From NCBI RefSeq assembly GCF_054482595.1, contig NZ_CM137008.1: 64,000 nucleotides of DNA; one strand, given 5' to 3'. A program made the position numbers and the translations under genes. Shown here piece by piece: positions 30,311 through 30,600 of this stretch. Positions within the stretch are counted from its first letter, which is position 1, and each line of letters begins with the position of its first letter. Under the pieces are notes generated by a model. The model saw only the letters and a list, made by a program, of their open reading frames with translations. It did not search any database and had not been told where the DNA came from.

Positions 30311-30426
30311 AACAACATCCTTTTAATGGTTTTGAACAATTGGTGTTGATAATACTTCAAAAAATACTAATGCGTACGCAAAAAATACAGTACTCTGTTA
30401 AGAGTGGTTACTTCGCCACACAGCTT

Positions 30427-30456
30427 AAACCCGCCGTTGAGCGGGTTTTGTCGTTT
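30427..30456 (+). terminator. Rho-independent terminator upstream of lysis genes (tR'-like)
   Basis: Stem ACCCGC/GCGGGT with loop CGTTGA followed by TTTTG; about 145 bp upstream of the holin start. Confidence 0.5.
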
Positions 30457-30600
30457 CTGGGGCTGGGGATTCGTTGGTCCTGGTCTATTCCGCAGTTATC
30501 CATTGGTTCGGCTTCTTTGACGTTTCCGCTTCTAATTTGCTGTACATGATGTTCCCTCAATTTGCACCTGCTGTATCAGCGAGGTGAGAGATAACTACAA

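Follow-up and report, generated by a model that had tools for sequence, protein, structure and literature searches.

We examined a 64,000-nucleotide stretch of contig NZ_CM137008.1 (NCBI RefSeq assembly GCF_054482595.1), hereafter the window, which is an E. coli lambdoid prophage and is 100% identical to E. coli strain 50EVA over positions 27400-31000. Ahead of its holin gene, positions 30359-30456 contain what we read, with a probability of roughly 0.8, as the late regulatory module of a Q21/Q933W-type prophage, made up of the late promoter pR', a Q-binding element (QBE, or qut), an early pause region and a first terminator (tR'). Such a module would locate the point at which late expression of the prophage, and hence lysis, is switched on. 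An earlier reading of the letters by themselves (the sequence-only reading) had proposed that a promoter and a terminator in this region are the equivalents of pR', qut and tR', and comparisons with cargo-free relatives, with the pR' of Shiga toxin (Stx) phages, with the DNA upstream of essD in DLP12 and with the layout of phage 21 support this equivalence. The element is a member of a known Q21/Q933W late cassette type, whose arrangement is already present in DLP12, PA-2, SfII and SfIV, and because the layout is common in related phages it is in itself ordinary; current understanding of Q antitermination is left unchanged. What is modestly new is comparative, namely how often and how diversely the slot between Q and pR' is filled with cargo, the palindromes specific to Q clades, and a possible cargo promoter back-to-back with pR'.

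Homology and layout of the block ahead of the holin

The region from 30346 to 30600 is 94.5% identical to the region ahead of the holin in Shigella phage SfII, and 30359-30449 share ~85% identity with PhiR5_1 DNA from the Q stop codon onwards, Q and the block being adjacent there. Over the start-site block and first hairpin (30396-30449) the window shares 83-85% identity with the annotated pR' and 'possible terminator' of SC370, phi345, Ss-VASD and Sakai Sp5; in Stx phages of the 933W/Sp5 type pR' overlaps the 3' end of Q, unlike in the window. In DLP12 of E. coli K-12 the same block precedes essD by 170 bp, with nmpC between it and quuD, and in PA-2 it adjoins lc. A scan of viral contigs for the start-site block gave 120 loci, or 134 sequences once individually retrieved loci and the window were added. 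In 107 of these, comprising every locus with enough upstream DNA, the block is preceded by a PF06530-type Q in the same orientation, and in the other 27 the block is within ~2.3 kb of a contig end; the window has a single block, and a convergent gene ends 24 bp after its Q.

The window Q belongs to the same family (PF06530, E = 1.9e-44, 111 of 118 model positions covered) and also weakly matches region 4 of ECF sigma factors. It shares 84-92% identity with the Q of Stx2a_1447, Stx1_132418 and Klebsiella phage P7641 and 42% with Q933W, and is a distant match to the Q21 structures 6p18/6jnx (phmmer E = 1e-3). PF06530 is named the Q21/Q933W family, and Q21 has been described as sigma-R4-like (Yin, Kaelber, Ebright; bioRxiv 10.1101/651190). 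Phage 82 (Q82/DLP12) was considered as a model for the window Q and dropped because PF06530 is the Q21/Q933W family and the published features of the phage 82 pR' (extended -10 pause element at +9 to +14, GCC at +15-17, U at +25) do not fit cleanly.

Phage 21 (curated record OL657228) also has a Q of PF06530, and the predicted plan of the window follows its order of -35, spacer element, -10, start, TAAG-type element, terminator and lysis genes. Its record gives a -35 of TTGACA, a QBE of ATTGAGCA and AATGAGCA in the spacer (-27 to -12), the pause element TAAGCTG at +2 to +8 and a terminator annotated at +3 to +50. Judged by sequence, the window block is thus built like the best-characterised member of its family. 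The two differ in that the QBE of phage 21 consists of two directly repeated 8-bp subsites (bioRxiv 10.1101/651190), whereas the window has a palindrome, GCGTACGC, followed by an A-tract. Furthermore, pR' starts 7 bp past the Q stop in phage 21 and lies 2.3 kb away in the window. The proposed layout also resembles that of lambda, which has a constitutive late promoter with a Q site between -35 and -10, a sigma-70-dependent early pause, and a short terminated leader RNA (6S) with Q-dependent read-through into S. Lambda differs in having a Q of an unrelated family (PF03589), no sequence similarity to the window, a 194-nt leader and a pR' directly after Q.

A sigma-70 consensus scan of both strands of 30311-30600 found no promoter, and its identification therefore relies on homology instead of hexamers; the earlier proposal of a plausible promoter ahead of the holin stands through its relatives and finds no match to the consensus. 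In the alignment the 933W hexamers are GTTTAC-17-TATCAT, and those of DLP12 and PA-2 (TTTACG-16-TATGCT) are better than the window's. The pR' of the Sakai Stx2 phage Sp5 has been mapped by differential RNA sequencing (dRNA-seq), with a transcript 3' end 258 nt downstream of the start (PMC7547250). This start is the third base of AGAGTGGTTAC, a core common to all homologous blocks and present exactly once in the window, and as in the annotated pR' of 933W/SC370 it lies 7 nt past the end of the -10 TATCAT. We take the published coordinates to be 142 below those of NC_002695.2, an offset based on the stx2A coordinate; once it is applied, the published 3' end coincides with the final T in the T-run of the second terminator. 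Transferred to the window, the Sp5 start predicts a +1 at ~30403, which would place the hairpin at +25 to +46, the end of the T-run (30456) at +54 and the holin start at +199.

The start-site block TAAGAGTGGTTAC was seen in every locus compared, has one exact copy in the window and, by its sequence, likely holds the sigma-70-dependent pause element. A near-copy with one mismatch at 54598 has no promoter or hairpin context. A full-text literature search for the block returned no relevant match, and an Rfam E-value scan of 27000-32500 gave a chance miRNA match only, with no known RNA family covering the leader. In the PA-2 record (J02580; locus L003, 1730-1750) a CRP-binding site is annotated over the start block GAGTGGTTACTTCGTCACACA; it covers the inverted repeat GTGG-N8-(C/T)CAC, which could have a role as DNA or as a 5' RNA hairpin (+2 to +17).

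Palindromes specific to Q clades

The sequence-only reading had drawn attention to direct repeats of GTATTTTTT (minus strand), and these are present: on the plus strand, AAAAAATAC occurs at 30359 and 30380, 21 bp apart, its sole two copies on either strand of the window, where ~0.5 copies are expected by chance. The two copies flank GCGTACGC, and this palindrome, rather than the direct repeats, is likely the better candidate for qut/QBE, judging from its behaviour across homologues. Copy 1 is likely a tract resembling an UP element, as it fits the proximal UP subsite in position and composition, and an A-run is found at the same position in other members of the window Q clade.

Clustering of 97 full-length Q proteins at 78% identity gave 12 clades, and each clade has its own 8-11-bp palindrome at -31 to -24 of pR', without exception in the 97 loci. 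The window/SfII clade carries GCGTACGC (25/25 loci) and the PhiR5 clade GCGGTCCGC (23/23, one locus with GCGGCCCGC). The 42 loci of the QuuD/933W clade have TACGTACGTA, ACGATCGT or ACAATCGT, which can be written as ACG(T/A)(A/T)CGT, and smaller clades of a few loci each have TGTTATAACA, GGAATTCC, GCGTTACGC and TTCGTTACGAA. In most loci the palindrome is followed by a tract of A4-6 (T4 in some clades). The coupling between palindrome and Q clade is independent of distance, holding where Q is adjacent and where it lies kilobases away, and the DNA downstream of the terminator reassorts freely between clades. Furthermore, one locus of the window clade (L075) and one of the PhiR5 clade (L069) differ only in the palindrome over the stretch between the -35 region and the start block, which argues for a specificity determinant over simple co-inheritance. 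The window palindrome overlaps the position of the phage 21 QBE; with a direct repeat in one and a palindrome in the other, the binding geometry is not transferable. The palindromes are candidates for promoter recognition by the Q933W branch, which bears on the control of Shiga toxin expression.

These data also bear on whether Q acts here at all. The block could instead be a Q-independent promoter with a leader attenuator of the lysis genes, governed by host factors such as RpoE, Hha and CRP, with Q irrelevant or defective. Indeed, the DLP12 lysis cassette is reported to be responsive to RpoE and Hha besides Q (cited in PMC7918800), the PA-2 record places a CRP site over the block, and the C-terminal tail of the window Q has been replaced by cargo sequence. 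Yet the block follows a PF06530-type Q in all 107 informative loci, its spacer palindrome shifts in step with the Q clade, and in Stx phages this block is annotated as the Q-dependent pR'; Q has kept its length, and Q proteins next to many kinds of cargo tolerate differing tails. We therefore give this explanation little weight, and return to Q-dependent control of pR' as the preferred reading.

First hairpin and the proposed switch

A terminator scan found the hairpin AAACCCGCCGTTGAGCGGGTTT (30427-30448; 8 pairs, 5 of them G-C) and, after it, TGTCGTTTCT. Its predicted folding energy is -12 kcal/mol alone and -19.6 kcal/mol for the 58-nt transcript (z = -2.47). The sequence-only reading had called this a strong hairpin and T-run terminator at 30427..30456, just before the holin at 30601; both parts are present, but 'strong' is generous, as the T-run is interrupted. 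A strict terminator-like hairpin (a perfect stem of 5 or more pairs that include 3 or more G-C, with a T-rich tail, within +18 to +90) occurs in 75 of 88 unique homologues, compared with 8.7 expected from mononucleotide shuffles, at a median position of +25 to +46, and most of the 13 misses have a single stem mismatch. The hairpins comprise 31 distinct sequences, with stem variants such as CCCGCC/GGCGGG, CCCTGCC/GGCGGGG, GCCCGAGG/CCTTGGGC and CCCTGTCA/TGACGGGG. By these predictions, the structure of the hairpin is retained across homologues while its sequence is exchanged. RNAalifold on a MAFFT alignment of 26 leaders did not recover the terminator, because stem and linker lengths differ and MAFFT left the stems out of register; it returned three invariant pairs of the 5' inverted repeat only, which are fixed by the search pattern used, and per-sequence hairpin detection was used instead.

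We propose that sigma-70 RNA polymerase would start at ~30403 and, without Q, would stop at the hairpin and T-run some 50 nt on, giving a short leader RNA. After induction, Q would bind GCGTACGC and the adjoining A-tract in the promoter spacer, load onto polymerase paused just past the start and carry it through the terminator, and the polymerase would then run into S, R, Rz and the structural genes.

Several points weigh against this reading. The hexamers of the window (CTAATG-18-TACTCT) are weak and were overlooked by the consensus scan. The TAAG-type element, TAAGAG(T), lies at -4 to +3 of the predicted start (TAAGAG at -4 to +2), compared with +2 to +8 for TAAGCTG in phage 21; TGGTTACTT at +3 to +11 is an alternative pause-element candidate. 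The predicted binding site differs in form from the phage 21 QBE, and the co-variation of palindrome and Q clade could come partly from physical linkage. The last ~9 residues of Q are replaced by cargo sequence, although its length is kept. The T-run is broken (TTTTGTCGTTT), and the homologous first hairpin of Stx phages is read through to give a 258-nt StxS precursor that reaches a second terminator, whereas the terminator scan found no second terminator ahead of the holin in the window. By this analogy, the window hairpin may terminate only partly.

StxS is known to derive from a 258-nt pR' transcript that extends to the second terminator and from which RNase E releases a 74-nt 3' fragment that binds Hfq (PMC7547250). 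No StxS-type small RNA was recognised in the window, where similarity to Stx phages is confined to 30396-30449 and the StxS body of one Stx locus (L007) has no counterpart. In Stx phages (L004/L007) the first hairpin resembles a very good terminator, with 7 T's, yet the StxS precursor reaches +258. Since this hairpin is transcribed through, termination there would be incomplete; either the hairpin terminates partially, or the published methods failed to pick up a ~50-nt RNA.

Weak hexamers and an interrupted T-run could also mean that the block is a decayed remnant, in which the insertion has weakened the signals and left a cryptic prophage with a poorly controlled late operon. The window has the weakest hexamers of its clade (CTAATG compared with CTAACG/TTAACG, and TACTCT compared with TATCGT), and the consensus scan saw no promoter. 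However, the same variant recurs in two independent contigs (L061, L081) and in 15 E. coli genomes (97-100% identity), TACTCT is also the -10 of P7641 and of two further loci (L096, L133), the TTTTGTCGTTTC tail is shared with SfII, which is an isolated phage, and the lysis and packaging genes around the block are intact open reading frames (ORFs). Decay therefore seems to us improbable, and a functional module remains the preferred reading.

Cargo slot between Q and pR'

The sequence-only reading had Q ending at 28083, 24 bp before a convergent moron operon, and pR' lying 2.2 kb downstream, beyond this cargo. The coordinates check out, with the convergent 395-amino-acid ORF ending at 28108, and the separation is borne out by an empty-site relative (L089) and by 83 cargo-bearing loci. 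In L089, whose Q is 84% identical to that of the window, the block lies 48 bp past the Q stop, and the alignment places the cargo at ~28056-30346, with the last ~9 Q codons derived from it and the length of Q unchanged. The cargo has a GC content of 0.33-0.385, compared with 0.52-0.55 in the flanks; with this deviant composition, and a slot that is empty or differently filled in relatives, the cassette is in these respects a moron. Distances between the Q stop and the block are bimodal across the 107 loci, at 11-49 bp in 24 and 627-2941 bp in 83. By sequence the long gaps form 36 clusters, most of which have a GC content of 0.31-0.40 and a predominance of minus-strand ORFs; the commonest is the lc/nmpC porin type (30 loci). 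E. coli genomes with the same flanks have the slot filled by other cassettes; a TIGR04255-containing trio is found there in strains of avian pathogenic E. coli (APEC). From such comparisons the slot looks like a hotspot for cargo or defence genes. At least 36 cargo types occur there in the sample, the lc/nmpC porin and known or candidate anti-phage pairs among them, and the slot could be a source of new defence genes.

Porin cargo in PA-2 and DLP12 has been known since the 1980s. DLP12 (quuD-nmpC-essD) and PA-2 (Q-lc-lysis) have the same layout as the window, of Q, convergent porin cargo, block and holin, and differ in Q clade (~46% identity), palindrome (TACGTACGTA), cargo and holin. SfII shares the Q clade and holin of the window, and its slot likewise holds an AT-rich cassette of two genes convergent with Q; its cargo pair differs in matching the PADLOC candidate system PDC-M53. 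The SfIV genome paper calls the region from Q to the lysis genes a moron, and the SfII and SfIV papers do not place pR'/qut relative to it (PMC3851460).

The window cassette entered the slot by recombination as a 2.3-kb AT-rich unit, carrying a likely anti-phage pair read towards Q. Against NCBIfam models the pair scores 56 bits for DS1_1 (cut-off 330, E = 2.8e-15) and 70 bits for DS1_2 (cut-off 315, E = 1.5e-19); neither protein reaches the DS-1 equivalog scores, and a PADLOC scan of the pair gave no match. The DefensePredictor paper describes a YejK domain as newly validated in defence. On these similarities the pair is probably a DS-1-like anti-phage system, and at most a distant relative of DS-1, whose two-gene layout it shares. 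The 395-amino-acid protein has hydrophobic C-terminal segments. Because Q is a diffusible protein its gene need not adjoin pR', and cargo between the regulator gene and its site would carry no cost.

The sequence-only reading had also expected a divergent promoter for the cargo operon in the same region. This is plausible from a pattern in the clade, although the window's own hexamer is weak. A candidate (Table 1) is back-to-back with pR' and overlaps the palindrome, which together with the A-tract reads TTGCGT on the minus strand. In the window Q clade, 17 of the 21 unique flanks that bear cargo have TTGCGT and, 17 bp (sometimes 18) further on, a TAnnnT that agrees with TATAAT at no fewer than 4 of 6 bases; at other offsets the background frequency is 0.12, and the empty site lacks the pattern. 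The best -10 sequences of the window are weak, with AAGTAT at 18 bp and TATTAT at 21 bp. The clade pattern suggests that cargo cassettes bring a -10 that would pair with a backbone -35, so that the cassette would probably be transcribed from a promoter back-to-back with pR' and the cargo and late promoters may be physically coupled. A general rule of this kind was rejected: the pattern is found in only 2 of 11 in the PhiR5 clade and is not general in other Q clades, the positives of the QuuD clade not being independent because all share one cargo type.

That the block is mainly the minus-strand promoter or regulatory region of the cargo operon, with the hairpin insulating it from opposite-strand transcription, could draw on the same 17 of 21 flanks and on a cargo start codon 36 bp from the junction, but it is very improbable, since the block is equally conserved without cargo in 933W, PhiR5_1 and L089, the T-run of the hairpin is on the plus strand and the minus-strand pattern is absent from the PhiR5 clade, and it would fit beside a late promoter module as a second function, not as a replacement. 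Going beyond that module, we consider speculative, though clearly less remote, a reading in which the gap between Q and pR' of Q21/Q933W-type lambdoid phages is a dedicated slot, exchanged by recombination, for defence genes or genes that modify the host, cargo promoters are built on the pR' core with the palindrome as -35, and the clade palindromes form the DNA specificity code of the Q933W branch. If so, occupancy of pR' by polymerase, and binding of Q once induction has occurred, would compete with cargo transcription and tie the cargo to lysogeny, and this would be the first definition of such a code for the Q933W branch.

Of the cassette's own signals, the candidate promoter is TTGCGT-18-AAGTAT (weak in the window) and the hairpin at the end of the operon lacks a T-run. 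The latter is a perfect palindromic hairpin, GACGGCCATATTGGCCGTC, at 28091-28109, 8 bp past the Q stop and overlapping the stop of the 395-amino-acid gene, with no T-run on either strand. SfII carries another hairpin, AAGCCCCTGTAGGGCTT, at the equivalent place. The hairpin after Q may be a two-way transcription barrier that arrives with each cassette.

Table 1. Features of the late block, the cargo cassette and neighbouring genes in window coordinates; positions relative to the predicted +1 are given as signed numbers
Feature	Position	Strand	Remarks
Candidate divergent cargo promoter	30352..30381	-	-35 TTGCGT 30381..30376, 18 bp, -10 AAGTAT 30357..30352
Upstream A-tract AAAAAATAC, repeat copy 1	30359..30367	+	-44..-36
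Weak -35-like hexamer CTAATG	30367..30372	+	18-bp spacer to -10; aligns with TTTACG of 933W and DLP12
Palindrome GCGTACGC, candidate core of the Q-binding element (qut/QBE)	30372..30379	.	-31..-24
Spacer A-tract AAAAAATAC, repeat copy 2	30380..30388	+	-23..-15
Putative pR' -10 hexamer TACTCT	30391..30396	+	aligns with TATCAT of 933W/SC370
Conserved start-site block TAAGAGTGGTTAC	30399..30419	+	predicted +1 = A at 30403 (±2)
Inverted repeat GTGG-N8-CCAC in start block	30404-30419		+2..+17
Candidate tR', hairpin and interrupted T-run	30427..30456	+	+25..+54; predicted leader RNA ~50 nt
DUF968 gene	26723-27718	+
Q antiterminator gene, Q21/Q933W family	27736-28083	+	115 amino acids from ATG
Gap from Q stop to convergent ORF	28084-28107		24 bp
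Cargo cassette (moron)	28056..30346	-	junctions from L089 alignment and start of SfII match at 30346
395-amino-acid protein, cargo	28108-29295	-	convergent with Q
NA37/YejK-like protein, cargo	29276-30310	-	convergent with Q; Pfam NA37
Intergenic region	30311-30600		290 bp
Holin S	30601-30927	+	ORF; Pfam Phage_holin_3_1 / Phage_lysis matches in lysis genes
Endolysin R	30931-31407	+
Rz, with Rz1 embedded	31404-31865	+

The mechanically called Q ORF opens at a TTG at 27721; homologues begin MRD(I/M), which points to the ATG at 27736, 18 bp past the end of the DUF968 gene. Just after Rz is a minus-strand ORF which, from its sequence, we take to encode a Bor-like lipoprotein (31897-32238), and an ORF that is presumably an HNH-endonuclease-like gene (32715-33065), likewise recognised from sequence, lies ahead of the small and large terminase genes.

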